Source: Clostridia bacterium | Lineage (GTDB): Bacteria; Aerophobota; Aerophobia; Aerophobales; AE-B3A | DNA length: 38,136 nucleotides | Assembly: GCA_030640665.1 (NCBI GenBank) | Contig: DAOWIY010000003.1 | Span: forward strand, 1-38,136 | Reading direction: 5' to 3' | Part shown: in pieces, positions 4,389 through 31,413 of the stretch | Numbering within the stretch: the first letter of the stretch is position 1 | How the letters are laid out: each line of letters begins with the position of its first letter | The notes under the pieces: generated by a model | The model's input: only the letters and a program-made list of their open reading frames with translations | What the model was told of the DNA's origin: nothing | Database searches by the model: none | Translations under genes and position numbers: made by a program

Positions 4389-4601
4389 AATTCGTATCCC
4401 GATGCTCGTTGTTCGTGATGTGTCTTGCGTGTTCCAAATATCGTTAATTTCGTTAGGTGAAGATAAAAGAATTTGAGGAGTTACCAACGAAAATAACGAA
4501 ACCAGCGAACCAAACGAAAAGAGGGGGAGAGAGAAAAAGCACGATGTGCTTTTTCAGGTGAGGGGGCACTAGATACGAGATGCGAACAACGAGATACGAA
4601 T
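4389..4601. repeat. intergenic inverted heptamer-repeat cassette E1 (nested arms)
   Basis: The 5' arm AATTCGTATCCCGATGCTCGTTGTTCGTGATG pairs with the 3' arm AGATACGAGATGCGAACAACGAGATACGAAT. Inner arms are 4441-4457 and 4483-4499. It ends 4 nt before the SD of hflK. Confidence 0.8.
4534..4554 (+). terminator. A-run/hairpin/T-run, intrinsic-terminator-like (potentially bidirectional)
   Basis: AAAAAGCAC-GAT-GTGCTTTTT forms a 9 bp stem with a 3 nt loop, and the T-run is part of the stem. It lies between the inositol cluster and hflK. Confidence 0.4.
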
Positions 4602-4617
4602 CAAAAAGGAGGTAAAA

Positions 4618-5586
4618 ATGGCTTATGAAGAGGGAAAAGGAGTTAATTTTCCCGAGTCCATACCCGGGAAGTGGATTGGCTGGGGAGTTGTAGGAATCAT
4701 CCTCATAATCATTCTGGTCTCTATTTTTTACTCAATTGGGCCCGAAGAAGTGGGGGTGATTAAAAGATGGGGTAGATATGTGCGATCTACAGAGCCTGGC
4801 CTACACGTTAAATTGCCTTTTGTGGAGTCAATAACCAAAGTTAAAGTAAAGCATATTTTCAAGGAGGAATTTGGTTTCAGGACTTTACAGGCGGGAGTGA
4901 AGACTATCTATGCTCCGGGTGGCTTTGAGGAAGAGAATTTGATGTTAACCGGCGATCTAAATGTGGCTGTGGTAGAATGGATCGTTCAGTATAAGATTGA
5001 AAACCCTATTGATTATCTTTTTGAAGTGAAGGATGTAGAGGATACGATTCGAGATATTTCTGAGTCAGCTATGCGCCAGATAGTGGGAGACAGAAGTGTA
5101 GATGAGGTCTTGACAGTGGGACGAATAGAGGTTGGGCTGGAGATGCAGGAAAAACTTCAGCAAATTCTAGATACCTACCGAACAGGAGTCCAGATAACCA
5201 CGGTTAAACTGAAGGATGTTAATCCGCCTAATGCAGTGAAGTCTTCCTTTAATGAGGTTAATGTGGCAAAACAGGATAAGGAGACAACTATTAATCAAGC
5301 CGAGCAGGAGTATAATAGGGTTATTCCCAGAGCAAAAGGAGAAGCAGAAAAAACGATTAGCCAGGCGGAAGGATATGCAGTGAATAGAATTAATCGAGCC
5401 CGAGGAGATGCTACTAAGTTTCTTGCTGTCTGGAAAGAGTATAATAAAGCCAGGGATGTAACCAGAAGAAGACTTTATCTCGAGACTCTGGAGGAAATTC
5501 TGCCTAAAATAGGGACAAAATATATCATCGATTCAGAGCAGAAAGGGATATTACCTCTTTTGTCTTTGAGCGAAGGAGGTAAGTGA
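4618..5586 (+). CDS. hflK: SPFH/band-7 protease modulator HflK
   Basis: 322 aa with an N-terminal TM segment, then an SPFH domain (VGVIKRWGRYV...PGLHVKLPF) and a coiled C-terminus. It is followed by an overlapping paralog. Confidence 0.85.
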   Translation: MAYEEGKGVNFPESIPGKWIGWGVVGIILIIILVSIFYSIGPEEVGVIKRWGRYVRSTEPGLHVKLPFVESITKVKVKHIFKEEFGFRTLQAGVKTIYAPGGFEEENLMLTGDLNVAVVEWIVQYKIENPIDYLFEVKDVEDTIRDISESAMRQIVGDRSVDEVLTVGRIEVGLEMQEKLQQILDTYRTGVQITTVKLKDVNPPNAVKSSFNEVNVAKQDKETTINQAEQEYNRVIPRAKGEAEKTISQAEGYAVNRINRARGDATKFLAVWKEYNKARDVTRRRLYLETLEEILPKIGTKYIIDSEQKGILPLLSLSEGGK

Positions 5587-6524
5587 TGAAGATAGAGCGA
5601 TTGATTCCCATAATAGTAGTGATTATTTTAGGCTTGATTATTTTGGGAGGAACCTTATATACGGTAGATCAAACCGAGCAGGTGGTCATTACTCAGTTCG
5701 GTGAACCTATAGGTGAGCCTATTACTGAACCTGGTCTACACTTTAAAACACCTTTTATCCAAAAGATAAACTCTTTCGAAAAACGCTTCTTAGCCTGGGA
5801 TGGGCTTCCTACACAGGTTCCTACCAAGGATAAAAGATACATCTGGGTTGATACCACGGCCCGATGGAGAATTGTTGACCCTCTCAAGTTTCTGCAAACA
5901 GTAGGAACTGAGAGAACAGCTCTAGGCAGGCTCGATGATATCATTGATTCTGCTACCAGAAATCAGATTACCAGTCACATTCTCTATGAGTTAGTGAGAG
6001 ACTCAGAGAGGGAATTTGCCGAGACGGAATTAAGCATACAAGTTGAGGAGACTATAGGTAAGGTGGAGTATGGTCGGGAGAAGATAAGCCGAGCCATCCT
6101 GAAAGAAGCATCTGAGGGTGTTCCTCGATTCGGGATAGAACTAATCGATGTCAGGATTAAGAGGCTCAATTATGTGGAGCAGGTAAGGCAAGGAGTTTAT
6201 GCTCGAATGATTGCCGAGAGAAAAAGGGTAGCTGAGCAATATCGCTCTGAAGGTCAGGGGGGAAAGGCCGAAATTGAGGGAAGGAAAGAAAAAGAGCTGC
6301 AAAGGATCACTTCTGAGGCTTATAAAAAGGCACAGGAAATTAAGGGAGAGGCTGATGCACAAGCGACCGGGATATATGCCGGGGCCTATAATAAAGATCC
6401 CGAGTTTTACTCATTCTTAAAGACATTAGAGACATATAAGGAAACTCTGGATGAGGATACATGGCTGATTTTAACCTCGGATAGTGACTTTTATAAGTAT
6501 CTAAAGAGTCTCTCTCCTCGGTAA
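5586..6524 (+). CDS. hflC: SPFH/band-7 protease modulator HflC
   Basis: ORF track start is 5583 (GTG). ATG 5586 has better spacing from GGAGG. It has a TM segment plus an SPFH domain (VVITQFGEPIGEPITEPGLHFKTPF). Confidence 0.85.
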   Translation: MKIERLIPIIVVIILGLIILGGTLYTVDQTEQVVITQFGEPIGEPITEPGLHFKTPFIQKINSFEKRFLAWDGLPTQVPTKDKRYIWVDTTARWRIVDPLKFLQTVGTERTALGRLDDIIDSATRNQITSHILYELVRDSEREFAETELSIQVEETIGKVEYGREKISRAILKEASEGVPRFGIELIDVRIKRLNYVEQVRQGVYARMIAERKRVAEQYRSEGQGGKAEIEGRKEKELQRITSEAYKKAQEIKGEADAQATGIYAGAYNKDPEFYSFLKTLETYKETLDEDTWLILTSDSDFYKYLKSLSPR

Positions 6525-6534
6525 ATTATCACGA

Positions 6535-6562
6535 TTGACATAAAAAAAAAGTTATTTATAAT
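6535..6562 (+). promoter_or_regulatory. near-consensus sigma70-type promoter upstream of ppdK
   Basis: TTGACA at 6535-6540, a 16 nt A/T-rich spacer, then TATAAT at 6557-6562. Confidence 0.55.
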
Positions 6563-6650
6563 AAGGAAGAAAATTATTAAGGAGAAATAACAAAAAGTAA
6601 AGAAATAGCAGAAAAATAAAGAAGTTAGGTAAAGGAGTAAAAAAGAAAAA

Positions 6651-9332
6651 ATGGGGGGATATGTATATTTTTTTGCGCAAAATAAGGCCAGTGGATCAGC
6701 GAAAATGAGAAATCTTCTGGGAGGTAAAGGAGCTAATCTTGCTGAAATGGCTAATTTAGGAATCCGAGTGCCCCCTGGCTTTACTATCAGTACTGAAGTA
6801 TGCAACTACTACACAGAGCACCATAATTATCCAGAAGACTTAGAGACAGAGATAAGGGAAAATTTAAATAAGGTAGAAGAAGCCACTGGAAAAAGATTTG
6901 GTGACATTCAAAATCCTCTATTGGTTTCCGTTCGCTCAGGAGCGAGAGTTTCTATGCCAGGGATGATGGATACTGTTCTTGATTTGGGACTAAGTGATAT
7001 TACAGTAGAGGGATTAGTTGAAGAGACGGAAAACCCGCGCCTTGCTTATGATGCTTACAGAAGACTGGTTCAGATGTTCGGCAATGTAGTTTTGGGAATA
7101 GAGGGAGAAAAATTTGAGGAGTTGATAGAAGAGAAAAAAAAGAGTAAAGATGCAAAGGAAGATATTGATTTAGCCTGGCAAGATCTGAAGGGATTAGTAG
7201 ATGAGTTCAAAGAGTTGATAGAAAAGGAGAAGGGTATTCAATTTCCTCAAGACCCTTTTAAGCAACTGAATATGGCCATAGATGCCGTTTTTGCTTCATG
7301 GAATAATAAAAGGGCTGTTAATTATCGTAAGATTAATAAAATTCCCGAACACTGGGGAACAGCCGTGAACGTCCAGGTAATGGTATTTGGGAATATGGGG
7401 AATGATTCTGGCACAGGGGTGGGGTTTACCCGAAATCCTGCCACTGGCAAAAAGGAGATATATGGAGAGTATCTACTTAATGCTCAAGGAGAAGATGTTG
7501 TTGCAGGCATAAGAACTCCTCACCCTTTCTCTAAGCTAAAGGAAGAGATGCCGCAGGTTTATCAAGAGCTAGTAGAGGTTGTTCAAAGATTAGAAGATCA
7601 CTATAAGGATGTGCAAGATTTTGAATTTACCATAGAGAAAGGGAAACTTTATTTACTTCAGACCAGGACGGGTAAAAGAACTACTCAAGCAGCAGCGAAG
7701 ATAGCCTGTGATATGGTTGAGGAGAGACTAATCGATAAAAAAGAGGCTTTGATGAGGGTAGAACCTGGTCAACTTAAGCAGCTTCTTCACCGAGGTATCG
7801 ATCCAGAGGCAGAACTTGAAGTATTTGCTAGAGGTCTTCCTGCTTCTCCAGGGGCAGCTACGGGTGCAATAGTTTTTACTGCGGATAGAGCTGTGGAATT
7901 AGCTCAAGATGGAAGAAAGGTTATTCTGGTTCGCAAAGAAACTTCTCCTGAAGATATTCATGGTATGGCTGCTGCCGAGGGAATACTTACTGCTCGCGGG
8001 GGGATGACTTCGCATGCTGCTATCGTGTCCAGAGGTATGGGTAAGTGCTGTATAGCTGGTTGTGAAGCTCTAAAGGTAGATGAGAAAAAGAAAAGATTTG
8101 AAGTAGATGGACTTGTTTTTAAAGAGGGTGACTTTATTACTCTGGATGGCAGTGCAGGAAGAGTGATAAAGGGAGAAGTACCCACACTCGAACCTGAGCT
8201 AAGCAGCGAGTTTAAAAAACTTATGAGATGGGCAGATGAGATAAGAACTCTTGGAGTAAGAGCTAATGCGGATACGCCTGAAGATGCAAAAAAAGCTCGT
8301 GAGTTAGGAGCAGAAGGAATTGGACTTTGCCGAACTGAGCATATGTTTTTTGGAGAAGAGAGGCTTCCTTACGTTCAGAAGATGATTTTAGCTGAAGATG
8401 AAGAAGTAAGAAAAGAAGCCTTAGAAAAATTAGAACCTATGCAGAGGGAAGATTTCAAAGGAATTTTAAGAGAAATGGAAGGTTTACCAGTTATTATTCG
8501 TCTGCTTGATCCCCCCCTGCATGAATTTTTGCCCCATTATGAAAGTCTTCTCCTGGAGGTTAATAAGTTAAAGTTGGAAAAAACCGAAGATAAGGAAAAG
8601 ATCCAGGAGAAAGAGAAGATTCTCCAGCGTATAGTAGACCTGCGAGAGGTGAACCCCATGCTGGGGCACAGGGGCTGTAGATTGGGGATAACCTTTCCTG
8701 AAGTTTACAATATGCAGGTGAGAGCAGTTTTTGAAGCAGCGGCAGAGCTGATTCTTGAGGATGTCAAGGTTTATCCAGAGATAATGATTCCTCTTGTGGC
8801 CAATGAGAAGGAGTTATCTTTTCTCCGAAAACAAGTAATTGAAGTGGCTGGAGAGATAATGAGAGAAAAAGGAGTAGAGTTTGAGTACAAGGTAGGCACG
8901 ATGATTGAACTTCCTCGAGCTGCTTTCTGTGCAGACAAAATCGCTCAAGAGGCAGATTTTTTCTCCTTCGGCACCAATGACCTAACCCAAACTACATTTG
9001 GGTTTAGCCGCGATGATGCAGAAGCTAAGTTTATACCTGCATATATTGAAAAGAAGATTCTGGAAGATGACCCTTTCGAGGTATTGGATCAAGAAGGGGT
9101 GGGGCAACTTCTGAAGATGGGAATAGAGAGAGGGCGCAAGACGAATAAAGATTTGGAAGTGGGCATTTGTGGCGAACACGGAGGCGAGCCCTCTTCGGTT
9201 AAGTTCTGTTACCAGATAGGGATGGACTATGTAAGTTGTTCCCCTTATAGAGTTCCCATTGCTCGATTGGCTGCTGCTCAGGCAATACTGGAAGATAGAA
9301 AAGCTATAAGTGACAAGTTTTTTAAAGAGTAG
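6651..9332 (+). CDS. ppdK: pyruvate, phosphate dikinase
   Basis: 893 aa. It has N-terminal LLGGKGANLAEM, the phosphohistidine segment GGMTSHAAIVSRGMG, and a C-terminal PEP-utilizer barrel with GTNDLTQ. Confidence 0.95.
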   Translation: MGGYVYFFAQNKASGSAKMRNLLGGKGANLAEMANLGIRVPPGFTISTEVCNYYTEHHNYPEDLETEIRENLNKVEEATGKRFGDIQNPLLVSVRSGARVSMPGMMDTVLDLGLSDITVEGLVEETENPRLAYDAYRRLVQMFGNVVLGIEGEKFEELIEEKKKSKDAKEDIDLAWQDLKGLVDEFKELIEKEKGIQFPQDPFKQLNMAIDAVFASWNNKRAVNYRKINKIPEHWGTAVNVQVMVFGNMGNDSGTGVGFTRNPATGKKEIYGEYLLNAQGEDVVAGIRTPHPFSKLKEEMPQVYQELVEVVQRLEDHYKDVQDFEFTIEKGKLYLLQTRTGKRTTQAAAKIACDMVEERLIDKKEALMRVEPGQLKQLLHRGIDPEAELEVFARGLPASPGAATGAIVFTADRAVELAQDGRKVILVRKETSPEDIHGMAAAEGILTARGGMTSHAAIVSRGMGKCCIAGCEALKVDEKKKRFEVDGLVFKEGDFITLDGSAGRVIKGEVPTLEPELSSEFKKLMRWADEIRTLGVRANADTPEDAKKARELGAEGIGLCRTEHMFFGEERLPYVQKMILAEDEEVRKEALEKLEPMQREDFKGILREMEGLPVIIRLLDPPLHEFLPHYESLLLEVNKLKLEKTEDKEKIQEKEKILQRIVDLREVNPMLGHRGCRLGITFPEVYNMQVRAVFEAAAELILEDVKVYPEIMIPLVANEKELSFLRKQVIEVAGEIMREKGVEFEYKVGTMIELPRAAFCADKIAQEADFFSFGTNDLTQTTFGFSRDDAEAKFIPAYIEKKILEDDPFEVLDQEGVGQLLKMGIERGRKTNKDLEVGICGEHGGEPSSVKFCYQIGMDYVSCSPYRVPIARLAAAQAILEDRKAISDKFFKE

Positions 9333-9383
9333 CGGTGCGATTTATCGCACATTGGAAGGTCTTAAAGCTTACAGCTGGGTAAG

Positions 9384-9468
9384 GGGGAGGTGCCAGAGTG
9401 GCCAAATGGGGCGGGCTGTAAACCCGCTGGCGTTGCCTACGATGGTTCAAATCCATCCCTCCCCACCA
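9384..9468 (+). tRNA. tRNA-Tyr (GTA), long variable arm, encoded CCA
   Basis: Acceptor GGGGAGG/CCTCCCC, anticodon loop CTGTAAA, T-loop GGTTCAAATCC. Closely resembles E. coli tRNA-Tyr. Confidence 0.9.
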
Positions 9469-9478
9469 GATAAATGTT

Positions 9479-9551
9479 GCCCATGTAGCTCAGGAGGTAG
9501 AGCACATCCTTGGTAAGGATGAGGTCACCGGTTCAAGCCCGGTCGTGGGCT
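9479..9551 (+). tRNA. tRNA-Thr (GGT)
   Basis: Acceptor GCCCATG/CGTGGGC, D-arm GCTCAGGAGGTAGAGC, anticodon stem-loop CATCC-TTGGTAA-GGATG, T-arm ACCGG-TTCAAGC-CCGGT. Confidence 0.9.
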
Positions 9552-9555
9552 CCCA

Positions 9556-9736
9556 ATTTCGTATATAGTATATGGTATATGGTAGGGAGACTTTGAAACG
9601 CACAACAGTACTGAAATTCCAGATTCCGCAGGAATAGATTAGTTTGTAAGGTTAGGAAAGAGAAGTTCCCTCTCCCTTCTGAGAAGGGGTGAGGGGATTT
9701 TTTCTTCACGATATACTACATACGATATACGAGTTT
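9556..9736. repeat. intergenic inverted heptamer-repeat cassette E2
   Basis: The 5' arm is TTCGTAT-ATAGTAT-ATGGTAT-ATGGTAG at 9558-9585. The 3' arm CACGATATACTACATACGATATACGAG at 9707-9733 is its imperfect complement. It ends just before the SD of tuf. Confidence 0.75.
9668..9703 (+). terminator. intrinsic-terminator-like hairpin with T6 tail inside cassette E2
   Basis: CCCTCTCCCTTC-TGA-GAAGGGGTGAGGG forms a stem of about 12 bp (one bulge, one GU), followed by GATTTTTT. Confidence 0.5.
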
Positions 9737-9753
9737 AAAAAGGAGGAAAAAAG

Positions 9754-10956: not shown

Positions 10957-10965
10957 GGAAGAGAG

Positions 10966-11181: not shown

Positions 11182-11185
11182 AAAT

Positions 11186-11289
11186 AGTTCATAGTTATGA
11201 GTTCGTAGTTCATTGATAAAACAACGAATGGTGAACCAATTGGCTAAGGGGCTGATAGGTCAATGAACTATGAACTACGAACAATGAAC
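11186..11289. repeat. intergenic inverted heptamer-repeat cassette E3 (GTTCRTA flavour)
   Basis: The 5' arm is GTTCATA-GTTATGA-GTTCGTA-GTTCATT at 11187-11214. The 3' arm TCAATGAACTATGAACTACGAACAATGAAC lies at 11260-11289. Confidence 0.8.
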
Positions 11290-11302
11290 AGAGTTAACAA
11301 GA

Positions 11303-11488: not shown

Positions 11489-11495
11489 GAGAATC

Positions 11496-13161: not shown

Positions 13162-13162
13162 A

Positions 13163-13690: not shown

Positions 13691-13692
13691 AG

Positions 13693-17516: not shown

Positions 17517-19577
17517 TTGTGGAAGATGGATGATATTAATAAGATCAAGGTGAGATTAGCCTCTCCTGAGGAGATAAAGGAGTGGTCCTATGGAGAGGTA
17601 AAGAAGACAGATACTATTAATTACCGTACTTTTAGGCCAGAAAGGAGAGGTCTTTTTTGTGAACAAATCTTTGGTCCTACAAAGAGTTATGAATGTTACT
17701 GTGGTAAATATAGGAAAATGAAATACAAGGGAGTCAAGTGTGAGAGGTGTGGAGTAGAGGTTACTTCTTCTAAAGTTCGCCGGGAAAGAATGGGACATAT
17801 TGAACTGGCTACTCCAGTTGTCCATATCTGGTATGCAAAGAATCACCTACCTCTTTTTTTGGGGCTCAAAAGGAATGATTTGGATAAAATAGTTTATTTT
17901 GTAAATTATTTAGTTATAGACCCGGCCGAGACTCCTTTGAAGAAAATACAGGTTTTAAATGGGGAGGAGTACCAAAGATATAAGGACCTATATGGTGAAG
18001 ATAGTTTCAAGGCAGCCACAGGAGCAGAAGCAATCTTGGAGGTCCTGCAAGCCATAAAGATTGAAAGACTAAGGGAAGAATTAAAGGAGAATCTATTTGC
18101 CGAAAGGACTAAAGGAAAAAGGATAAAGTTAATCAAGCGACTAGAAGTAGTAGAGAGTTTTTTCCACTCAGGGAATAAACCTGAGTGGATGATTTTAAAA
18201 GTTGTTCCTGTTATTCCTCCTGACTTCCGACCCATGGTTCAATTGGAAAGTGGAATTTTTGCCAATTCAGATTTAAATGATTTGTATCGACGGATCATTA
18301 ATCGCAATAACCGTCTTAAATATCTACTAGAAATAGGTGCACCTCAAATAATTATTCAAAACGAGAAAAAAATGCTCCAACAATCTGTAGACGCCCTTTT
18401 TGAAAATGAGAAACTTTCTCAACCTATATTAGGAGCAGGAGGTAGACCTCTTAAGTCTCTAAGTGAGATAGTCAAAGGTAAACAAGGTAGATTTCGGCAG
18501 AATCTCCTTGGCAAAAGAGTTGATTATTCAGGAAGGGGAGTAATCGTACCCGGGCCGGATTTAAAGATTTATCAATGCGGACTGCCCGAAAAGGTAGCCC
18601 TGGAGCTTTTTAAACCCTTCGTCCTTGGAGAAGTTATGCGGGAAGGTAAAGCTGAGACTATAAAAAGGGCTAATGATTTAATAGAAAAGGCCGATTCCTT
18701 TGTTTGGAAGATATTGGAAAAGGTGGTTGAGGATCATCCTATACTCCTAAACCGTGCTCCTACCCTGCATCGTTTAGGAGTCCAGGCTTTTCAACCGGTC
18801 TTAATAGAGGGAAATGCTATTCAGCTGCATCCTCTGGTATGTGCTGCTTTTGGCGCTGATTTTGATGGCGATCAGATGGCCATACATATTCCTCTTTCTT
18901 ATGAGGCCCAGCTTGAGGCAAAAACTTTGCTGCTTTCCAGTAATAATCTTCTTTCTCCTGCCAGTGGCAACCCTGTGGTCACTCCTACTCGGGATATTAC
19001 CGTTGGTTGTTATTATTTGACTATAGAGGGAAAAGGAGAAACCAAGAAGAGAGTTTTCTCTAGTCCGGACGAGGTAATCCTTGCCTATGATTTAGGAAAA
19101 ATAGCCCTTCACCAGCCTATGAAGTTGTTCTTAAAGAAAGGGTGGATAGAGACTACAGTAGGAAGAGTAATTTTCAATAAGGTCCTTCCAGAAGGAATGG
19201 ATTTCGAGAACTTTCCTATAGATAAAGAGAAATTAGGCGAGATCATAAGTAAGGTTTGGAAGAAATATGGAAATGCAGTCACAGTTGAGGTTTTGGATGA
19301 GATGAAAAAGTTAGGATTTGAATATGTTACCAAATCAGGATTAACTTTTGCTATGTCTGATGTACCTGATATACCAGAAAAGAGAGAACTGTTACAGTAC
19401 GAAGAGGATGAGGTAAAGGGATACGACTTATTAGCTGAAGAAGGAAAGATCAGTGAGGAAGAAAGATATATTGAGGTGATTGATTCGAGGATGAGGGTTA
19501 TTGATCAAATAGGAGGAAAGGTATCTCAATCTCTGTCTCGTAATCCTTTTAATCCTCTTTATTTGATGTGGAAATGA
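17517..19577 (+). CDS. rpoC: RNA polymerase subunit beta-prime, N-terminal 686 codons, ending at an in-frame TGA
   Basis: Zn finger CYCGKYRKMKYKGVKCERCGVEV, RFRQNLLGKRVDYSGR, and catalytic loop GADFDGDQMA. TTG 17517 or ATG 17526 is the start. The frame continues directly into the next ORF. Confidence 0.9.
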   Translation: MWKMDDINKIKVRLASPEEIKEWSYGEVKKTDTINYRTFRPERRGLFCEQIFGPTKSYECYCGKYRKMKYKGVKCERCGVEVTSSKVRRERMGHIELATPVVHIWYAKNHLPLFLGLKRNDLDKIVYFVNYLVIDPAETPLKKIQVLNGEEYQRYKDLYGEDSFKAATGAEAILEVLQAIKIERLREELKENLFAERTKGKRIKLIKRLEVVESFFHSGNKPEWMILKVVPVIPPDFRPMVQLESGIFANSDLNDLYRRIINRNNRLKYLLEIGAPQIIIQNEKKMLQQSVDALFENEKLSQPILGAGGRPLKSLSEIVKGKQGRFRQNLLGKRVDYSGRGVIVPGPDLKIYQCGLPEKVALELFKPFVLGEVMREGKAETIKRANDLIEKADSFVWKILEKVVEDHPILLNRAPTLHRLGVQAFQPVLIEGNAIQLHPLVCAAFGADFDGDQMAIHIPLSYEAQLEAKTLLLSSNNLLSPASGNPVVTPTRDITVGCYYLTIEGKGETKKRVFSSPDEVILAYDLGKIALHQPMKLFLKKGWIETTVGRVIFNKVLPEGMDFENFPIDKEKLGEIISKVWKKYGNAVTVEVLDEMKKLGFEYVTKSGLTFAMSDVPDIPEKRELLQYEEDEVKGYDLLAEEGKISEEERYIEVIDSRMRVIDQIGGKVSQSLSRNPFNPLYLMWK

Positions 19578-19619
19578 GGAGGGAGAGGATCTGCTGATCA
19601 GCTGCGCCAGATAATAGGG

Positions 19620-21077
19620 ATGAGGGGTTTGATGGGTAGATCCATAAGGGAGACCTATCGCCGTGAACTTTGGGATGAGGTGTTCAAAAGAAGGTTAAAT
19701 ATTTCTCTGGAATTAATTAAGCAATATTTTTATCCTCTTTCAGGAGGTAGGTTAAAAGGAAGAATTGGAGAGGAGCCTATTAGATCTAGCTTTAAAGAAG
19801 GTCTTACTGGTCCGGAGTATTTTTTTTCTACCTCCGGAGGTAGAAAAGGTTTGGTGGATACTGCTCTAAAAACAGCTTATGCAGGTTATCTTACTCGCAA
19901 GTTAGTGGCTGTAGCTCAAGACCTCGTTATTACTGAGAAGGATTGTGGAACTATTGATGGTTTTTCTATGGAGCCCTTAGTTGAAGAAGGGAAGGTAATG
20001 GAGCCTTTAGAAAAGAGGATATTGGGTAGAGTAACTGCTTCTCCTGTGATAGATCCTTCTACTAAAGAAACCATTATAGGTTCTAATGAGGAAATTACAG
20101 AAGAGCTCGCCCAAAAGATAGAAGAGGTGGGGGTGAAGAAGGTGAAGATTCGTTCTCCCTTATCCTGTCAGGCTAAGTGGGGATTGTGTCAAAGGTGTTA
20201 TGGGTGGGATCTTTCTGTTCATAAACTAGTTGATCTGGGAGAGGCAGTAGGAGTGATAGCAGCACAATCTATAGGTGAACCAGGAACTCAGCTTACCTTA
20301 CGTACATTTCACACAGGGGGAGTATTTCAGAAAGGTGGAGATATTCCTCAGGGTTTACCTCGAGCAACGGAACTTTTTGAACCTCGAAAGAAAAGTTATC
20401 CCCGAAAAGGAGTTATACGACAGCGCAGAGGAGAAGAAGCGCTAATAAGTGAAGTGGAAGGAAAGGTGAGTATAGAAGAAAGAGAGGGGCGCAGTTTTGT
20501 TAAGATTAAAGGAGAAAAGGATGAAGAGGTAATTTATGAAGTGGAAGGAGAAATGTTAGTCTCTGAGGGTGAAACAGTAGAAGCAGGAGAGAAGATAATT
20601 GAAGGAAGTATAAATCCCCGTTCTCTTTTAAGTATAAAAGGGATTAGAGCTGTAGAAAAATATTTGGTTGATCAAACTCAACAGGTTTATAAATCTCAAG
20701 GAGTGGATATTAGCACTAAGCACTTTGAGGTAATTATAAGACAGATGATGAGAAAAGTCCAGGTAGAAGAGCCGGGAGACACAGGTTACCTGCCAGGAGA
20801 ACAAGAGGATAAGATAGAGTTTGAGAAAATCAATAAGGAAATAAAGGAAGGAGGAGGTAAGCCCGCTACGGTAAAGCCTGTTCTTTTAGCTATTCCTAAA
20901 GCAGCACAGGAAAATAAGGAGAGTTTTTTGTCTGCTGCTTCTTTCCAGAGAACGAGGCAAGTTTTAGCTGAGGCAGCGCTCTACGGACAAGTAGATTCTC
21001 TTAGGGGACTTAAAGCAAACGTAATTATCGGTAAGCTAATTCCAGCAGGGACAGGATTTAATCTAAATAAGGAATAA
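19620..21077 (+). CDS. rpoC: RNA polymerase subunit beta-prime, C-terminal part (same frame as 17517..19577)
   Basis: Homology already resumes at 19578 ([19 protein letters not shown]). Contains bridge helix [24 protein letters not shown] and trigger loop [17 protein letters not shown]. The ATG at 19620 is only the ORF-finder start. Confidence 0.9.
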
Positions 21078-21931: not shown

Positions 21932-21933
21932 TG

Positions 21934-21958
21934 AAAAATAGGAATACATCCTATTTTT
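21934..21958 (+). terminator. AU-rich perfect hairpin directly after rpsG (attenuator/terminator-like)
   Basis: AAAAATAGGA-ATACA-TCCTATTTTT forms a 10 bp stem. The T-run is part of the stem, so terminator strength is doubtful. Confidence 0.3.
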
Positions 21959-22033
21959 CTCGTATATCGTGAAGAAAAAAGTAAAGAAGCAAGAATCCAC
22001 AAGATACGAGATACAAACAACGAGATACGAATT
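21957..22033. repeat. intergenic heptamer-repeat cassette E4 (short 5' arm, long ACGA-type 3' arm)
   Basis: CTCGTATATCGTG at 21959-21971 pairs with CACAAGATACGAG at 21998-22010. The rest of the 3' arm, ATACAAACAACGAGATACGAATT, has no local partner. Confidence 0.75.
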
Positions 22034-25063: not shown

Positions 25064-25065
25064 GA

Positions 25066-25689: not shown

Positions 25690-25976
25690 GTGAAATTCCT
25701 CAAGCTATTATTCTAGAACCTGTAGTTTCAGAGAAAGGGACGCAGTTATTAAGGGAGAATAAATATGTGTTCAAGGTTTCTCTGAAGGCAGGTAAAGTTG
25801 AGATCAAAAAGGCAGTGGAAGAGTTATTCAAAGTAAGAGTTGAAAATGTCAGAACTATGCATGTGAGGAGCAAAACTAGAAAACGGCGGGGTCGAGTTCT
25901 AGAGAAGAGCTCCCATTGGAAAAAAGCTATAGTAAAATTGAAAGAAGGGGAAGCTATTGAGGAGTTAGGAGTCTAG
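25686..25976 (+). CDS. rplW: 50S ribosomal protein L23
   Basis: 96 aa; position and the KYVFKV...KKAVEELF pattern fit L23. Confidence 0.93.
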
Positions 25977-25978
25977 GT

Positions 25979-26812
25979 ATGCCTGTAAAAATTTATAAAC
26001 CTACTTCTCCCGGCAAGAGGCGAAAAAGTGGATATAGTTTTTCTGAAATTACCAGGAAAAAATCGGAAAAAAGCCTCGTTGTCAGTTTAGGGAAAAAAGC
26101 TGGTAGAAATAATCAAGGCAGAATCAGCATAAGGCACAGAGGAGGGGGAGCCAAGAGAAAGTACCGCCTGATTGATTTCAAAAGAGACAAAGAAAAGGTT
26201 CCAGCTTATGTTGCTTCCATTGAATATGATCCTAATAGGTCAGCCAGAATTGCTCTTCTCCATTACAAGGATGGAGAAAAAAGATATATAATCGCTCCCT
26301 TGACTTTAAAAGTAGGAGATGAGATTATTTCAGGTGAAGAAGCTGCGCTAAAACCTGGAAATGCTCTTCCTTTACGAAAGATTCCTGAAGGAAGTTTCAT
26401 TTACAATATTGAGTTAAAAAAAGGGAAAGGGGGCCAATTGGTTCGATCTGCGGGAACAAGTGCTGAGCTTTTAAGTAAAGAGGGGAAGTTTGCTCAAATT
26501 AAGCTTCCCTCAAGTGAAGTGAGGCTGATTCCTTTGGAATGTAAGGCTACCTTAGGCCAGGTAGGAAATTTAGAACATGAAAACATTATAATTGGCAAAG
26601 CTGGTAGATCTAGATGGTTAGGTCGGCGTCCTCGGGTACGGGGATCAGCTATGAACCCTGTAGATCATCCTCATGGAGGAGGAGAAGGTCGTAGTGGTCC
26701 AGGAAGGCATCCGGTGAGTCCACAGGGTAAGCCTGCTAAAGGGGGAAAAACCCGAAAAAAGAGGAAATTCTCAGATAAATTCATCGTTCAAAGAAGGAAA
26801 AAGAAGCGATAA
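25979..26812 (+). CDS. rplB: 50S ribosomal protein L2
   Basis: 277 aa with [12 protein letters not shown] and [16 protein letters not shown]. Confidence 0.97.
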
Positions 26813-26884
26813 ATTCGTATCTCGTTGTTCGTATCTCGTGAAAGAAATTTCCTCTCCCCTTGGGGAGAGGATTAAGGTGAGGGG
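26812..26884. repeat. intergenic heptamer-repeat cassette E5 (solo TCGT-type arm plus internal hairpin module)
   Basis: AATTCGTATCTCGTTGTTCGTATCTCGTG starts in the last base of the rplB TAA. It is followed by hairpin CCTCTCCC-CTTG-GGGAGAGG (26851-26870) and GGTGAGGGG (26876-26884). There is no local complementary arm. Confidence 0.75.
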
Positions 26885-26944
26885 AAAAGTAACCAATTAA
26901 CTAGTTGAACTAATTAACTAACGAAGAAGAAGGGAGAGAAAAGT

Positions 26945-27229
26945 ATGGGACGTTCGATTAAGAAGGGCCCTTATGTTGAGCCATCTTTGTTGAAGAAAAT
27001 AGAGAGGATGGGAAGGGGAGGCGAGAAGAAACCCATTAAAACATGGTCCCGTAGATCTACGATTACTCCTGACTTTGTAGGTTATACCTTTGCTGTTCAT
27101 AACGGCAAGGATTTTCATCGTGTTTACATTTCTGAGGATATGGTAGGTCATAAATTAGGTGAATTTGCTCCTACACGCAAGTTCACGCATCATGGGGCCC
27201 ATTCAAAAAGAACTATATCACCAAAGTAA
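26945..27229 (+). CDS. rpsS: 30S ribosomal protein S19
   Basis: 94 aa with [11 protein letters not shown] and [13 protein letters not shown]. Confidence 0.96.
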
Positions 27230-27299
27230 GTTCGTATCTAGTATCTCGTGAATCGTATCTCGACCACAGTATAAAAGAGAGATACGAACAACGAGATAC
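27230..27299. repeat. intergenic inverted heptamer-repeat cassette E6 (simple long hairpin)
   Basis: GTTCGTAT-CTAGTAT-CTCGTGA-ATCGTAT-CTCG, then a loop, then GAGAGATACGAACAACGAGATAC. It starts 1 nt after the rpsS TAA and ends at the SD of rplV. Confidence 0.8.
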
Positions 27300-27311
27300 A
27301 GGAGTTTATAG

Positions 27312-27641
27312 ATGGAAGTGAGGGCTGTGGCAAAATATGTACGGGTGTCTCCTTTAAAAGTAAAAAGAGTTACTGATCTTATTAAGGGCAAGCAAGTAGA
27401 AGAGGCGATAAAGATTTTAAATTTTACCCGCATTGGTAATGCCCGAAAGGTAAAAAAAGTTCTAAAGTCTGCTATGGCTAATGCTCAGAATAATTTTGGG
27501 TTAGCCTCCAATACTCTTTACGTAAAAAGAGCTTTTGTAGACAAAGGGTCTATTCTTAAAAGAATGAAACCTAGAGCAAGAGGTAGGGCTGATATGATAA
27601 GGCGAAGAACCTCACATATTACTGTAATTGTTGAGGGATAG
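27312..27641 (+). CDS. rplV: 50S ribosomal protein L22
   Basis: 109 aa with VRVSPLKVKRVTDLIKGK and PRARGRADMIRRRTSHITV. Confidence 0.96.
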   Translation: MEVRAVAKYVRVSPLKVKRVTDLIKGKQVEEAIKILNFTRIGNARKVKKVLKSAMANAQNNFGLASNTLYVKRAFVDKGSILKRMKPRARGRADMIRRRTSHITVIVEG

Positions 27642-27659
27642 GAAAAAGGAGATTAAGCA

Positions 27660-28337
27660 GTGGGACAAAAGGTTAATCCGTTAGGCTTAAGAATAGGAAT
27701 AATTAGAGGATGGTTAAGTAGGTGGTATGAGGAAAAGGATTATGCACAACGTCTTCATGAGGATCTTAAAATCCGCAGGTTTCTCAAAGAAAAATTTAAA
27801 AAAGCTAATATTTCAAAAATTTTGATAGAAAGAGCTGTTAATAAGGTGCGGATAAATATTTTTGCTGCTCGACCCGGCATCATTATTGGAAGAAAAGGGG
27901 AAACAGTTGAGAAAACCAAGGAAGGTTTGGAAAAATTAATAAGAGGTGGAAGTATTTTCCTGAATGTGCAGGAAATAACTCGACCAGAATTAGATGCTCA
28001 ATTAGTAGCAGAGAACATAGCTTTTCAGTTGGAGAGGAGAACATCGGCGAAAAGGGCTATGAGAGAGGCTATTTCACGGACAATGGAATTTAGTGCACAA
28101 GGGATTAGAATTGCTTGCAAAGGAAGGATTGCTGGAGCGGAAATCGCTAGAAAAGAGTGGATGAAAGAAGGAAGGATTCCTTTGCATACTTTGAGGGCAG
28201 ATATTGATTATGGAGTTGCTACCGCTCATACTACTTATGGATGTATTGGAATAAAGGTGTGGATATATAAGGGAGAAATTTTGCCTACTTTATCCGAGGA
28301 GAAATTTAAGAATGAGACTCCAGCCGAAGAGAGTTAA
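27660..28337 (+). CDS. rpsC: 30S ribosomal protein S3
   Basis: 225 aa with a GTG start, beginning [13 protein letters not shown], plus a KH domain. Confidence 0.96.
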
Positions 28338-28737
28338 ATATAGGAAGGTCCAGAGGGGTAGACTAAGGGGTAAAGCTTCCCGTGGAACAAAGTTAAACTT
28401 TGGAGAGTATGGTTTGATAGCTCAAGAAGCAAAGTGGCTAACCGCTCGCCAAATAGAAGCGACTAGAATTACCATAGTTCGTTCTGTAGGACATGAGGGA
28501 CGTCTTTGGATCAGGGTTTTTCCTGATAAGATAGTTACCAAGAAACCTTTAGAGACCCGTATGGGAAAGGGTAAGGGAGAACCTGATTTTTGGGTAGCAC
28601 CAATTAAACCTGGAAGAGTTTTATTTGAGCTTGGAGGAGTAGAGAAAAGGAGAGCTAAGGCGGCCTTTCGCTTAGCCTCTTATAAACTTCCTTTTAAAAC
28701 CAAGATTATTTCCTCTTACCATGAGGATAAATTATGA
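28312..28737 (+). CDS. rplP: 50S ribosomal protein L16
   Basis: 141 aa with [12 protein letters not shown] and [14 protein letters not shown]. It overlaps rpsC by 26 nt. Confidence 0.95.
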
Positions 28738-28943
28738 AAGTGGAAGAATTAAGGGATTTGTCGAAGGAGGATCTTTATGAACGTCTTAAGGATGTTCAAA
28801 GAGAGTTGTTTGACTTGAAGATAGAGGCGGCTCAGGGAAAAGCGACAAACCCTTCCAAGATTAGAGAGATAAAAAAGACTATATCTAGAATAAAGACTTT
28901 ACTTCGAGAAAAAGAGATAAAATTAGGCAGGAGAAAAGCTTGA
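28734..28943 (+). CDS. rpmC: 50S ribosomal protein L29
   Basis: 69 aa with [25 protein letters not shown]. Confidence 0.93.
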
Positions 28944-29212
28944 ATGATAATAGAATAAAGCGAAAAAAGGAAAGAGCGGGCGAAGTAATAAGTGACAGAA
29001 TGGATAAGACAGCCGTAGTGCTTATTAAACGTGAATTTATTCATTCCTTATATGGGAAAAAGGTAAGAAAAAAGAAAAAAATAAAGGTTCATGACCCTGA
29101 GAATAAATGTCGAAAAGGTGATATAGTAAGGGTAGTAGAAACTAGACCTTTGAGCAAAGAAAAGTGCTGGCGGATAGCTGAGATTTTAGCAAGAAGAGAA
29201 GGAGTAAAGTGA
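28940..29212 (+). CDS. rpsQ: 30S ribosomal protein S17
   Basis: 90 aa with a TTG start overlapping the rpmC TGA. Contains [16 protein letters not shown] and [15 protein letters not shown]. Confidence 0.93.
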
Positions 29213-29577
29213 TTCAACCTCAAACTCAACTTGTGGTTGCCGATAATACTGGAGCGAAGAGATTAATGTGTATAAGAGTACTAGGGGGATCATCGCGTCG
29301 TTATGCTCGAATAGGGGATATAATAGTGGCGTCGGTGAAGAGGACTGTTCCTAATAGTGAAATAAAAAAAGGCGAGGTAGTGAAGGCAGTAGTTGTTAGG
29401 ACAAAAAAAGAAATACGTAGGCAAGATGGTTCGTATGTAAGATTTGACGAGAATGCAGCAGTATTAATTGACGCAACTGGGAACCCAAGAGGAACAAGAA
29501 TTTTTGGTCCTGTAACCCGGGAACTTAGAGAAAAGAATTTTATGAAGATTATTTCCTTAGCACCTGAGGTACTTTAA
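29209..29577 (+). CDS. rplN: 50S ribosomal protein L14
   Basis: 122 aa with a GTG start, beginning [17 protein letters not shown], ending APEVL. Confidence 0.96.
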
Positions 29578-29667
29578 AATTCGTTGCTAGTCGCTCGTTG
29601 CTTGTATCTCGCACCAAAAAAGAGGACAGGCTATTTTTATTTTATACGAACAACGAGCAACGAAAAT
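29578..29667. repeat. intergenic inverted heptamer-repeat cassette E7
   Basis: The 5' arm is AATTCGTTG-CTAGTCG-CTCGTTG-CTTGTAT-CTCG. The 3' arm ATACGAACAACGAGCAACGAAAAT lies at 29644-29667. Confidence 0.8.
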
Positions 29668-29679
29668 AGGGGTGAAGTA

Positions 29680-30006
29680 GTGTCTAAGATAAAAGTGAAT
29701 GATGAAATAGTGGTTATTTCTGGTAAAAATAGAGGAAAGCAGGGTAAGGTGATTCAAAAAATCCCCAAAGAAGATAGATTAGTTGTGGGGGGAGTTAATA
29801 TTACTAAAAGGCATATTCGGCCTACTCGAAAAGGACAGCAAAGTGGAATAGTAGAAAGGGAAGCTCCCATCCACAGTAGTAATGTGATGTTAGTGTGTCC
29901 ACGCTGTGGAAAAAAAACAAGGATAGGAATGACCATATCGAAGCAATCATTGACTGAAGAGAAAAAACTAAGGTTTTGTAAAAAGTGTGGAGAAACGATT
30001 GATTAG
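29680..30006 (+). CDS. rplX: 50S ribosomal protein L24 (zinc-ribbon form)
   Basis: GTG 29680 after AGGGGTGA gives [24 protein letters not shown]. The ORF-track start 29584 reads through cassette E7 and is an artefact. The C-terminus has CPRCG...CKKCG. Confidence 0.93.
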
Positions 30007-30020
30007 AAAAGGATAGGACG

Positions 30021-30569
30021 GTGGCTAGACTTAAAGAAATCTACAAGAAAGAGATCATTCCGTTGATGATTAAGAAATTTGGCTACAAGAATCTTATGGG
30101 GGTTCCTAAGATTGAGAAAGTTTGTCTTAATATAGGGGCAGGTAGCGCTAAAAAGGATACTAAATTACTGGACGCAGCTAAGAGGAGTCTTGCTTTGATT
30201 AGCGGGCAGCAACCTATAATTACCAAGGCTAAAAAGTCTATTGCTGGTTTTACTTTGAGAAAAGGTACTTCTATAGGTTGCAAAGTTACCCTCAGAGGGG
30301 AAAGGATGTATGAGTTTTTAGATAGGTTATTTAATTTGGCTATGCCCAGAATTAGAGATTTTCAGGGTATTTCTTTAAACCAATTTGACGGCAGAGGTAA
30401 TTTTACTCTAGGTTTGCGAGAACAATTGATGTTTCCAGAAGTTTCTTATGAAGGAGAAAACACCCAGGGTTTATCCATAACTATAGTAACCACAGCTAAA
30501 AAAGATGAGGAAGCTAAGGAACTACTTGCTTCTCTGGGGATGCCTTTTAAAACAGTTCATAGTTCGTAG
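30021..30569 (+). CDS. rplE: 50S ribosomal protein L5
   Basis: 182 aa with a GTG start, beginning [14 protein letters not shown]. The last 5 codons (TVHSS) and the stop lie inside cassette E8. Confidence 0.95.
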
Positions 30570-30620
30570 TTCAACAGTGACGAATGTTACTATTGATTTA
30601 GTCAATGAACTATGAACTAC
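30553..30620. repeat. inverted heptamer-repeat cassette E8 (GTTCRTA flavour) overlapping the rplE 3' end
   Basis: CAGTTCATAGTTCGTAGTTCAAC at 30553-30575 pairs with GTCAATGAACTATGAACTAC at 30601-20. Confidence 0.8.
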
Positions 30621-30670
30621 CAGCGAGCTCGTAAGAGCGAGCGTATAATGAACACAAAAAGGGAGAGGAA

Positions 30671-30856
30671 ATGGCAAAAAAAGCTTTGATAGAAAAAGCT
30701 AAAAGGAGATCAAAGTTTAAAGTTCGCGCCTATAATAGATGTCAAATTTGTGGGCGACCTAGAGGTTATATCAGAAAATTTGGTCTATGCAGGATTTGTT
30801 TTCGTTATCTAGCCCATGACGGTGTTATCCCTGGAGTTAAAAAAGCCAGCTGGTAG
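30671..30856 (+). CDS. rpsN: 30S ribosomal protein S14, short type Z (zinc-binding)
   Basis: 61 aa with [22 protein letters not shown]. Confidence 0.95.
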
Positions 30857-31267
30857 ATGGAGGATGTAATGTTTACCGACCCCATTGCTGATTTATTAAC
30901 CAGAATCAGAAATGCTAATATGCTTTCCAAAGCTAAAGTTGAACTTTCGAGTTCTAATATAAAGGAAAAGGTAGTATCAGTTTTAAAAAGAGAGGGTTTC
31001 ATAAAAGGATATAGAGTTGTAGTGCAGGGGAAAAAGAGGATCCTTCAGATATACTTAAGATATTCCGAAGATGGAAAAGGTCTAATTACTCATTTGGAGC
31101 GAGTTAGCAAACCTGGTAGACGAAGATTTGCCAAGGAGAGGGAAGTACCTAGAGCGGTAAGGGAAAGGTTAGGGATTTGTATTCTTTCTACCTCTAAAGG
31201 AATCCTTACCGCTGAGGAAGCGCACAAGTTAGGAGTAGGAGGAGAAATTCTTTGCTATGTATGGTAA
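30857..31267 (+). CDS. rpsH: 30S ribosomal protein S8
   Basis: Contains TDPIADLLTRIRNA and the C-terminal CYVW. The start is ATG 30857 or ATG 30869 (GGAGGA lies 4 nt upstream of the latter). Confidence 0.95.
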   Translation: MEDVMFTDPIADLLTRIRNANMLSKAKVELSSSNIKEKVVSVLKREGFIKGYRVVVQGKKRILQIYLRYSEDGKGLITHLERVSKPGRRRFAKEREVPRAVRERLGICILSTSKGILTAEEAHKLGVGGEILCYVW

Positions 31268-31413
31268 ATTCGTTGTTCGTTGTTCGTATCTCGTAAGGAA
31301 AGAAAAAAACGATTGAAAAGATTAAAGATTTTAGAGATTTGGAGACCTGAAAGAAGGATATTGTGTTTTGTGTAACGTATCTTGAGCGAGATACGAGCGA
31401 CGAGATACGAATT
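31268..31413. repeat. intergenic inverted heptamer-repeat cassette E9
   Basis: The 5' arm is ATTCGTTG-TTCGTTG-TTCGTAT-CTCGTAA directly after the rpsH TAA. The 3' arm is GAGCGAG-ATACGAG-CGACGAG-ATACGAATT at 31384-31413. The interior has GATT recurring four times at 7-10 nt intervals. Confidence 0.8.

Follow-up and report, generated by a model that had tools for sequence, protein, structure and literature searches.

Why should a bacterial operon whose genes otherwise overlap or nearly touch carry long spacers at a handful of its junctions, and what do these spacers contain? The question is raised by the window analysed here, the complete 38,136-nt contig DAOWIY010000003.1 (assembly GCA_030640665.1, Aerophobota, deposited as Clostridia bacterium), in which nine intercistronic spacers, referred to as cassettes E1 to E9, are built from inverted arrays of degenerate heptamers. 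In comparison with known systems they are heptamer-repeat palindromic elements resembling the intervening sequences (IVS) of 23S rRNA. The reading that we favour, with moderate confidence, is that they are selfish hairpin cassettes without an open reading frame (ORF), that they belong to an IVS-like class found across phyla, and that they are probably substrates of RNase III once transcribed; they are more likely tolerated passengers than a device needed by the operon, and we infer that they behave as selfish or near-neutral DNA.

All genes of the window lie on the plus strand and intergenic DNA makes up 4.6% of it. The window has 50 junctions, 38 of them of at most 20 nt and 12 of at least 30 nt. 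The cassettes (82–278 nt) account for nine of the twelve long junctions, and the remaining three are a promoter gap (6525–6650), a gap preceding a tRNA and a 42-nt 'gap' in rpoC that is an in-frame stop codon. A first, sequence-only reading of this DNA had set nine long spacers against tight junctions elsewhere, and this picture is borne out: the cassettes lie where it placed them, read as it described and contain the heptamers exactly as it spelled them. In the nine spacers the 5' arm is made of tandem degenerate heptamers TCGTNNN (T-type) and the 3' arm of the inverse type NNNACGA (A-type), the units being TCGTATC, TCGTTGT, GTTCATA and GTATATG and the arm ends reading ATTCGT...ACGAAT; two copies are incomplete, E4 having a short 5' arm and E5 no 3' arm, as had been seen. 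The 3' arm had been described as the reverse complement of the 5' arm, which holds for its type, but complementarity between the arms is only about 71% and their pairing owes much to the constant CGT/ACG cores. The sequence-only reading had also placed the cassettes within a translation/transcription operon, which holds with the exception of E1, flanked by a CDP-alcohol transferase gene on one side and a Band-7 gene on the other.

A repeat search recovered the inverted arms independently in E3 (30 nt, 83%), E9 (29 nt, 83%), E6 (21 nt, 86%), E1 (19 nt, 84%) and E7 (19 nt, 84%). The 21-nt degenerate arm pattern matched the window six times compared with none in 100 shuffles, and a detector requiring TCGT every 7 nt for at least three units found nine arrays, all intergenic, compared with a single array in 20 shuffles taken together. 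Period-7 arrays (head-to-tail, at least three copies, non-coding), as seen by TRF and the TCGT detector, are confined to the spacers of the window, and no arrays with CGT/ACG cores were detected at periods of 4–6 or 8–11. A chance origin of the arrays in the window is excluded. E4, E5, E6 and E1 have a 21–27-nt arm in common: positions 26812–26839 match the reverse complement of 22006–22033 at 27 of 28 nt, and 27279–27299 is the exact 21-nt reverse complement of 26817–26837, both as first read. The arms alone are shared; the interiors of E1 to E9 are unrelated to one another.

Searches with Rfam covariance models gave only three tRNAs at gathering score, with no cassette match at that score or at an E-value of 1 or below and no ribosomal-protein leaders. 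Literature searches with the arm sequence returned matches limited to Illumina P7 primer strings; primer tables are retrieved because the commonest unit junction of the arm consensus, ATCTCGTAT, is identical to part of the P7 adaptor. An adaptor artefact was considered and rejected, as the arrays sit at defined gene junctions and are present in the finished genome of Ca. Nitrospira defluvii (FP929003.1), and we judge the identity to be coincidence.

The sequence-only reading had proposed comparing orthologous gaps, and among the Aerophobetes relatives presence and absence indeed differ. The S10/spc regions of 14 relatives (77–81% L2 identity) were taken and every junction was tabulated; loci collected for comparison carry L numbers. 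In one Aerophobetes clade the junctions are empty, with 13 nt at L2-S19 (for example taaTGGAGGTAGGAGAatg), 13 nt at L14-L24, 26 nt at S8-L6 and 20 nt at S7-EFG, whereas the window clade and L127 are filled at several junctions that are empty elsewhere, the sequence and heptamer flavour varying by genome; orthologous cassettes have diverged too far for alignment by columns. The reverse is also found, as S14-S8 measures 0 nt in the window versus 83–249 nt in other genomes, and L18-S5, L3-L4, S10-L3, L22-S3 and L29-S17 are likewise tight in the window but filled in others. Close relatives differ in unit number (3 versus 6 AAGAACT units at S19-L22), and an array may supply or overwrite the upstream stop codon, as in E8, at L5-S14 of L122 and in L206. 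A single flavour recurs at several junctions inside one genome, and different junctions share fourfold more 10-mers within a genome than between genomes (means of 2.11 versus 0.53). Heptamer arrays are missing from most of the S10/spc operons that were scanned in other phyla. Because the junction table contains filled and empty states, changes of unit number and shared flavours, the cassettes are dispensable and dynamic: they are lineage-specific insertions into transcribed spacers that are gained, lost, resized by whole heptamers and homogenised within a genome.

Two further observations concern the filled junctions of these relatives. The L2-S19 and S19-L22 spacers of L127 hold hairpin inserts with terminal inverted repeats AACCACTGAAGACACAGAG...CTCTGTG..CAGTGGTT, two copies at adjacent junctions that TRF does not call as heptamer arrays. 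Just 5' of the S8 start, the S14-S8 spacers of L123, L130, L129 and L122 contain the block ACAGCGACGRAGGGGGCCTAGTCCCGAGATAT or variants of it; filled alleles have the block in common and differ in the heptamer arms on either side of it, and it may be an S8 operator.

The arrays extend far beyond this lineage. When 185,579 species genomes were scanned for the arm pattern GTATCTCGTYGYTYGNATCTC, at least 118 loci in at least nine phyla matched, where about 9 chance matches are estimated from the pattern information and the collection size. By record title, the matches listed comprise Nitrospirota (44, among them Ca. Nitrospira defluvii, whose finished genome is cited above), Planctomycetota (28), Omnitrophota (12), Smithella/delta-proteobacteria-like records (12), metagenome-assembled genomes (MAGs) labelled 'Clostridia' (8), Aerophobetes (3), Binatia (3), Atribacterota (2) and others (6). 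Among the matches listed, 199 arrays were detected compared with 1 in shuffles, and 139 of the 199 are intergenic, though about 86% of the DNA is ORF. Their density per kb of spacer is 1.33 between co-directional, 0.67 between convergent and 0.40 between divergent genes. Of the neighbouring pairs of arrays, 44 read T-then-A and a single one A-then-T. T-type arrays prevail in the first 40 nt after stops (47 versus 23 A-type) and A-type arrays in the last 40 nt before starts (44 versus 8 T-type). Since a T...A hairpin reads alike on both strands, the polarity belongs to the element itself and does not reflect a strand bias. Further arrays adjoin tRNA ends and occur in tRNA-tRNA and rRNA-operon spacers (L152, L086, L070).

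In the last three loci the heptamer hairpins (L086 843–932, L070 582–640 and L152 6369–6452) extend from the end of one tRNA to the start of the following one; those in rRNA operons lie between tRNA-Ile and tRNA-Ala, and another lies between tRNA-Tyr and tRNA-Thr. Many seed matches are found within about 150 nt of a contig end (L002, L014, L022, L023, L028, L036, L037), and in L039 (6040–6173) an N-gap separates two identical arrays. The copy number of the arrays is probably under-counted, because they seem to break short-read assemblies. Carriage by phages was also considered and set aside, only two matches being in viral contigs.

These distributions bear on the view that the arrays are simple-sequence debris formed in place, the 7-nt units multiplying by slippage and the inverse arm arising through template switching at quasi-palindromes, with neither mobility nor a relation to IVS and with the likeness between loci reflecting mutational preference. 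Variable unit number is what such a process would leave, at S19-L22 as well as in Coxiella strains (2 versus 3 units), and heptamers are the commonest long simple sequence repeat (SSR) unit in bacteria according to Mrazek 2007 as summarised in PMC4679880. Slippage with random inversion, however, does not predict the 44-to-1 order of T and A arrays. Also against this view are the same 21–27-nt arm at several junctions of one genome and also across phyla, the enrichment in co-directional spacers, and the discrete genes flanked by single-flavour arms, of a different flavour in each cassette, that are described next. We consider an origin as debris unlikely.

Clustering of the 720 ORFs around the arrays yielded only signalling proteins, ordinary enzymes and one unexpected family, PF05635/TIGR02436, annotated as 'four-helix-bundle' or '23S rRNA intervening-sequence protein' (S23p). 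Genes of this family lie inside arm pairs in L044, L105, L029 and L157, and L044 contains three of them, each in its own T...A arm pair and with three flavours among the pairs. L157 comes from another phylum (64% L2 identity); its PF05635 gene is located between L23 and L2 of the S10 operon and is flanked by (TAAGCTT)9 and (AAAGCTT)7, a unit that includes the palindrome AAGCTT, and the S10-L3 spacer of the same operon reads (GGTTTTC)4...(GAAAACA)4 from the stop codon to the Shine-Dalgarno (SD) sequence. Six sampled PF05635 homologues (L206, L209, L211, L213, L214, L215) are all co-oriented with the cistrons between which they lie in ordinary operons, namely V-ATPase B|D, MoxR|DUF58, ACT|AMP-ligase, YebC|RuvC, a pilus operon and an ABC-transporter locus (L214, upstream of the transporter gene). 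CGT/ACG heptamer arrays stand on both sides of the gene in all six, and five follow the plan stop|T-arm|ORF|A-arm|next start, L214 being the exception with A|ORF|A.

The 23S IVS of Coxiella, which is regarded as selfish, provides the link to RNA processing. It consists of a 28-bp terminal inverted-repeat stem enclosing an S23p ORF, and its 5' arm contains two or three tandem heptamers (GACAGAT), the number depending on the strain; RNase III cuts at the first heptamer repeat and the insert is excised (PMC4990558). By analogy with this system, the stems of the cassettes are probably RNase III substrates as well.

Folding of the nine spacers with RNAfold paired the outer arms in E1, E2, E3, E6, E7, E8 and E9, with z-scores from −2.2 to −6.6, so that the stems expected from the sequence-only reading are predicted in seven of nine cassettes but not in the incomplete E4 and E5. 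The downstream SD sites are unpaired and outside the stems in every predicted fold. Aligned arm positions in operons of known direction comprise 793 Watson-Crick pairs and 221 transversion oppositions. Selection on the sense-strand RNA was examined through two asymmetries and rejected on both: G·U pairs in ribosomal-protein operons show no excess in the sense strand (56 versus 45 in the antisense strand, p = 0.32), and of 30 hairpins from across phyla, 13 are more stable as sense and 17 as antisense strand.

A host-selected device for RNA processing or stability, in which RNase III cleavage or protection from exonucleases would set the relative levels of the cistrons, would draw on the long predicted stems, on the heptamer-bearing IVS stem of Coxiella, which RNase III does cut, and on the two observations of strand stability in the window and of retention through one Aerophobetes clade that are weighed below. 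Repetitive extragenic palindromic (REP) sequences, bacterial interspersed mosaic elements (BIMEs) and Correia hairpins alter mRNA decay, which is also in its favour. Nevertheless, sister genomes are free of inserts at the same junctions, other genomes are filled at different ones and most other phyla have none; the arms are imperfectly complementary, the 221 transversion oppositions are uncompensated, and neither the wobble nor the energy comparison has a sense bias. Because ribosomal proteins are required in equal amounts, differential decay would have no obvious purpose here. We consider such a device distinctly unlikely. The sequence-only reading had offered RNase III stems that dissect the long polycistron; the stems retain a place in our interpretation by analogy with the PF05635/S23p arm plan and the Coxiella IVS, but nothing suggests that the host has selected them to dissect the polycistron.

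The same reading had also offered a coupling device, in which the base of the stem joins the stop codon to the next SD and the terminating ribosome melts the 5' arm, thereby activating the downstream start or handing over to it. The geometry that inspired it is partly real: the 5' arm begins at the base after the stop codon in E5, E6, E7 and E9 and spans the stop in E8, the 3' arm ends 0–5 nt 5' of the SD in E1, E2, E6, E7 and E9, and a closed stem would hold stop and SD spatially near. E1, however, is not at a gene stop, as the upstream ORF ends at 4339 and the TAA at 4387–4389 is out of frame and 48 nt downstream; E2 and E3 follow tRNAs, and E5 has no 3' arm and E4 almost no 5' arm. No melting is needed to expose the SD, because it is unpaired in all predicted folds. 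Cassettes of this architecture are also found where no ribosome terminates, between tRNAs and in rRNA spacers; in relatives the same gene pairs are coupled across spacers of 13–26 nt, and the wobble pairs carry no sense bias. The positional 'precision' is explained by insertion into a spacer of about 15 nt. Coupling is highly improbable, and that part of the sequence-only reading is not supported.

The arrays could alternatively be rows of sites to which a sequence-specific protein binds, each subunit reading one heptamer of single-stranded RNA or of DNA (a cold-shock or S1-type protein with an oligonucleotide/oligosaccharide-binding (OB) fold, or a DNA-binding factor), the inverse layout being secondary. 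The constant CGT/ACG core with variable neighbours, conserved better than the complementarity of the arms, speaks for this; in other phyla A-type arrays end 0–10 nt 5' of starts, often without an SD, and binding has been proposed for TAACTGA repeats upstream of starts (PMC4679880). Against this, the loci offer no candidate protein with a link to the arrays, and the near-obligate pairing of T with A arrays is unexplained. A hairpin is favoured over a single recognition sequence because unrelated flavours (GTTCATA, GGTTTTC, TAAGCTT, ATAGCTC) keep the same inverse plan. We regard binding-site arrays as improbable.

Selfish, IVS-like cassettes therefore remain our preferred interpretation, and of the hypotheses raised at the outset a selfish element of the miniature inverted-repeat transposable element (MITE) or REP kind is the best fit, given the empty and filled junctions, the within-genome flavour, the fixed polarity and the cross-phylum spread; the comparison with REP does not hold. 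Several points weigh against this interpretation. The transposase with matching ends that had been envisaged, such as a REP-associated tyrosine transposase (RAYT), did not appear, as all-against-all clustering of the 720 ORFs of the at least 118 loci contains no recurrent transposase-like family; no consistent target-site duplication was found in the flanks of the nine cassettes or between filled and empty sites; and the end profiles contain no sharp conserved terminus, just one more degenerate unit. Mobility is unproven for these three reasons, and the first two also speak for debris. A single arm pattern served as seed for the cross-phylum set, whose ORF calls are crude, and the six PF05635 homologues, having at least 62% identity to one Omnitrophota protein, represent one subfamily. 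In the window and the sampled Aerophobetes loci, a profile search of six-frame translations detected neither a PF05635 gene nor a remnant of one, so that the link to IVS in this lineage would be one of shared architecture and heptamer vocabulary and not of a cargo-bearing cassette, and the assignment of the stems to RNase III derives from that analogy. The array in L124 looks like an extension of a CCTAAGG seed that the empty L129 and L132 sites contain, which is growth in place as debris would have it. Seven of the nine cassettes in the window fold more stably as sense than as antisense strand (E9, −46.3 versus −27.1 kcal/mol), a preference that could be largely due to the G-richness of the sense strand. 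Finally, inserts at L2-S19, S19-L22, L14-L24 and S8-L6 are kept through one Aerophobetes clade despite sequence turnover, and this persistence at four junctions could reflect selection. Regarding possible remnants, a marginal match at the end of L125 was followed up and is not a PF05635 protein.

How the cassettes relate to described repeats can be seen from their architecture. With the 23S IVS, some of which carry an S23p ORF (in Coxiella, Leptospira and others), they share terminal inverted repeats and a long stem closing the insert (seven of nine in the window, E4 and E5 being incomplete); the Coxiella insert also sits in an essential, highly expressed transcript, and the PF05635 genes of other phyla are enclosed by CGT/ACG heptamer arms like those of the window. 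They differ in that the window cassettes contain no ORF, occupy mRNA and tRNA spacers rather than helix 9, 25 or 45 of 23S rRNA, and use heptamers such as TCGTATC instead of GACAGAT, with an arm polarity unlike that of Coxiella.

Short tandemly repeated repetitive (STRR) sequences are tandem heptanucleotide repeats of cyanobacteria. The analogy with them, drawn in the sequence-only reading, is apt, as STRR, long SSR and TAACTGA repeats share with the cassettes the 7-nt unit, the intergenic location, a patchy cross-phylum range and a variable unit number, and often lie a few nt 5' of start codons and inside ribosomal-protein operons. TAACTGA repeats are found in Beggiatoaceae, Cyanobacteria and Bacteroidetes, upstream of starts that include those of ribosomal-protein operons, and in BOGUAY 169 direct repeat sets stand against one inverted set (PMC4679880). 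The known cases are thus direct repeats, whereas the cassette family forms inverse pairs with fixed polarity (44:1 in the matches listed); the units (neither STRR1-3 nor TAACTGA) and the phyla (Aerophobetes, Nitrospirota, Planctomycetota, Omnitrophota and others) are different, and reports of the PMC4679880 type draw no link to PF05635.

REP, BIME and REPIN (paired REP) elements resemble the cassettes as extragenic hairpin repeats that often form inverted pairs, prefer co-directional and convergent spacers and are probably transcribed. A REP is a single stem-loop of 20–40 nt with a 5–13-bp stem and a GTAG or CGTC tag, and some families have no known transposase (PMC3733652). The cassettes instead have arms of 3–9 tandem heptamers and loops of 17–174 nt or a whole gene, their end profiles contain no conserved terminal tag and no RAYT gene was seen among the locus ORFs. 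REP families with the GTAG/CGTC tag were considered as a source and rejected owing to this mismatch of architecture.

Correia/NEMIS hairpins, inverted repeats of Neisseria carried in mRNA, are RNase III substrates. MITEs of this kind have in common with the cassettes the terminal inverted repeats, insertion near genes and co-transcription, but for the cassettes no target-site duplication has been recognised and no parent insertion sequence is known, and their arms are internally repetitive and change by whole units. As their interiors are unrelated, the nine cassettes are not copies of one element, again unlike a MITE. The attC sites of integrons are similar in placing imperfect inverted repeats between the stop of a small promoter-less ORF and the next ORF, and the PF05635 cassettes are likewise co-oriented and apparently promoter-less; they lack R''/R' cores (RYYYAAC / GTTRRRY), an integrase and attI, and are scattered singly in housekeeping operons rather than gathered in an array.

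We propose that the class follows the plan 5' (TCGTNNN)n, loop, (NNNACGA)n 3', the loop being with or without a PF05635/TIGR02436 gene. The DNA may spread by transposition, by conversion between copies or by template switching combined with slippage. Insertions would persist only where they are harmless, which in a tight operon means between a stop codon (or a tRNA end) and the next SD; the apparent bridging from stop to SD would then follow from survival at harmless sites, and no coupling function need be invoked. Once transcribed, the arms are predicted to pair in a long imperfect stem by which the insert is sealed off while the downstream SD stays free, and RNase III probably cuts this stem, by analogy with the IVS, removing or isolating the insert at the RNA level. 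We suggest more tentatively, as a possibility below even likelihood, that the 23S IVS is one visible case of a broad cross-phylum class that inserts into any transcribed spacer (between cistrons, between tRNAs or in rRNA) and stays harmless because RNase III removes its stem from the transcript, with the PF05635 protein, a relative of the accessory protein Avd of diversity-generating retroelements (DGRs), as the cassette's own factor and the fixed polarity marking a single mobile lineage in Nitrospirota, Planctomycetota, Omnitrophota, Aerophobetes and others. The arms and interiors of the nine cassettes, together with the sites in L157, are listed in Table 1.

Table 1. Positions of the heptamer arms, loops and interiors of cassettes E1 to E9 in the window, and of the array and PF05635 sites in locus L157.
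Feature	Position	Strand	Description
E1 5' arm	4390..4431	+	T-type ATTCGTA TCCCGAT GCTCGTT GTTCGTG ...; about 50 nt past the real upstream stop (4339)
E1 loop	4437..4556	+	inner inverted pair of ~9-nt units, AATATCGTT... / AACGAAACA... (4437-4455, 4486-4519); small hairpin 4534-4556
E1 3' arm	4570..4601	+	A-type TAGATACGAGATGCGAACAACGAGATACGAAT; ends 3 nt 5' of the Band-7 gene SD AAAGGAGG
E2 5' arm	9556..9586	+	GTATATG flavour; begins 2 nt after the tRNA-Thr 3' end
E2 loop	9668..9705	+	nested hairpin CCCTCTCCCTTCT-GAG-AAGGGGTGAGGGG, then T-run (terminator-like)
E2 3' arm	9705..9733	+	A-type TTCACGATATACTACATACGATATACGA; directly 5' of the tuf SD
E3 5' arm	11184..11216	+	GTTCATA flavour; begins 2 nt after the tRNA-Trp 3' end
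E3 3' arm	11260..11289	+	TGAACTA flavour; 13 nt 5' of the secE start
E4 5' arm	21957..21974	+	short, degenerate, TTCTCGTATATCGTGAAG; preceded by an A/T-rich hairpin (21934-21958) after the S7 stop
E4 3' arm	22000..22033	+	A-type; reverse complement equals the E5 5' arm at 27/28 nt
E5 5' arm	26813..26842	+	ATTCGTATCTCGTTGTTCGTATCTCGTGAA; begins at the base after the L2 stop; 3' arm lacking
E5 interior	26850..26921	+	nested hairpin CCTCTCCCC-TTGG-GGAGAGG and GTGAGGGG, then array of ~8-nt period TAACTAAT
E6 5' arm	27230..27264	+	begins at the base after the S19 stop
E6 3' arm	27277..27299	+	abuts the L22 SD (ACAGGAG)
E7 5' arm	29578..29612	+	GTTGCTC flavour; begins at the base after the L14 stop
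E7 3' arm	29644..29667	+	2 nt 5' of the L24 SD (GGGGTG); start codon GTG at 29680
E8 5' arm	30554..30575	+	GTTCATA flavour; overlaps the last L5 codons and provides the stop TAG 30567-30569
E8 3' arm	30603..30620	+	followed by a second small hairpin (30622-30645), then the S14 SD
E9 5' arm	31268..31298	+	begins at the base after the S8 stop
E9 3' arm	31374..31413	+	2 nt 5' of the L6 SD AGAGGGAG
L157 array/PF05635 sites	2478-2580 and 4110-4640		

Two features of the cassettes go beyond their paired arms. The orphan 5' arm of E5 (26813–26842) finds a perfect 21-nt complement in the 3' arm of E6 (27277–27299), 440 nt downstream, and this cross-pair (21/21) is a closer match than the arm pair of E6 itself (86%); a long-range stem between E5 and E6 would enclose the S19 cistron in the way that T|ORF|A cassettes enclose PF05635 genes. 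A second small repeat, the hairpin CCTCTCCCC-NNNN-GGAGAGG followed by GTGAGGGG, is nested in the loops of E5 (26850–26883) and E2 (9668–9705), and is also found in L074, in L096 and in the S14-S8 and S8-L6 spacers of L120; in loci from MAGs labelled 'Clostridia' the motif lies beside heptamer arrays.

The L2 protein of the window, identical to one in NCBI assembly GCA_023129925.1, carries the name Aerophobetes at NCBI. The genes of the window begin with those for inositol-phosphate and CDP-alcohol transferases, two Band-7 proteins and pyruvate phosphate dikinase, followed by tRNA-Tyr, tRNA-Thr, tuf and tRNA-Trp, and then by secE-nusG-L11-L1-L10-L12-rpoB-rpoC and the ribosomal-protein genes of the str, S10, spc and alpha operons. 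A perfect sigma-70 consensus (TTGACA, 16 nt, TATAAT; 6535–6562) is present in the 126-nt gap 5' of the pyruvate phosphate dikinase gene. The rpoC gene (17517–21077) appears as two ORFs of 686 and 485 aa because of a single in-frame TGA at 19575–19577; by tblastn, residues 1–1185 align in a single frame with 79.6% identity, and in relatives rpoC is one gene of 1187–1194 aa. The TGA could be a sequencing error, a sign of a pseudogene or a site of read-through.

If the preferred reading is true, it would join three subjects, namely the heptanucleotide arrays, a puzzle in origin and role from the STRR reports onwards, the PF05635/TIGR02436 family, which is very large and has no assigned function, and the 23S IVS. 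It would also explain how essential, tight operons tolerate insertions of 80–500 nt, as the insert closes on itself and may be cut from the RNA. Metagenome assemblies seem to break at the arrays, stop codons and C-terminal residues can be supplied or overwritten by them and SD sites displaced, and gene calling in many uncultured phyla is affected by them. The part most worth following up is the link between inverse heptamer arrays and PF05635 across phyla. For the operon studied here the meaning is deflationary, in that the cassettes are not a conserved regulatory layer of the translation gene cluster.

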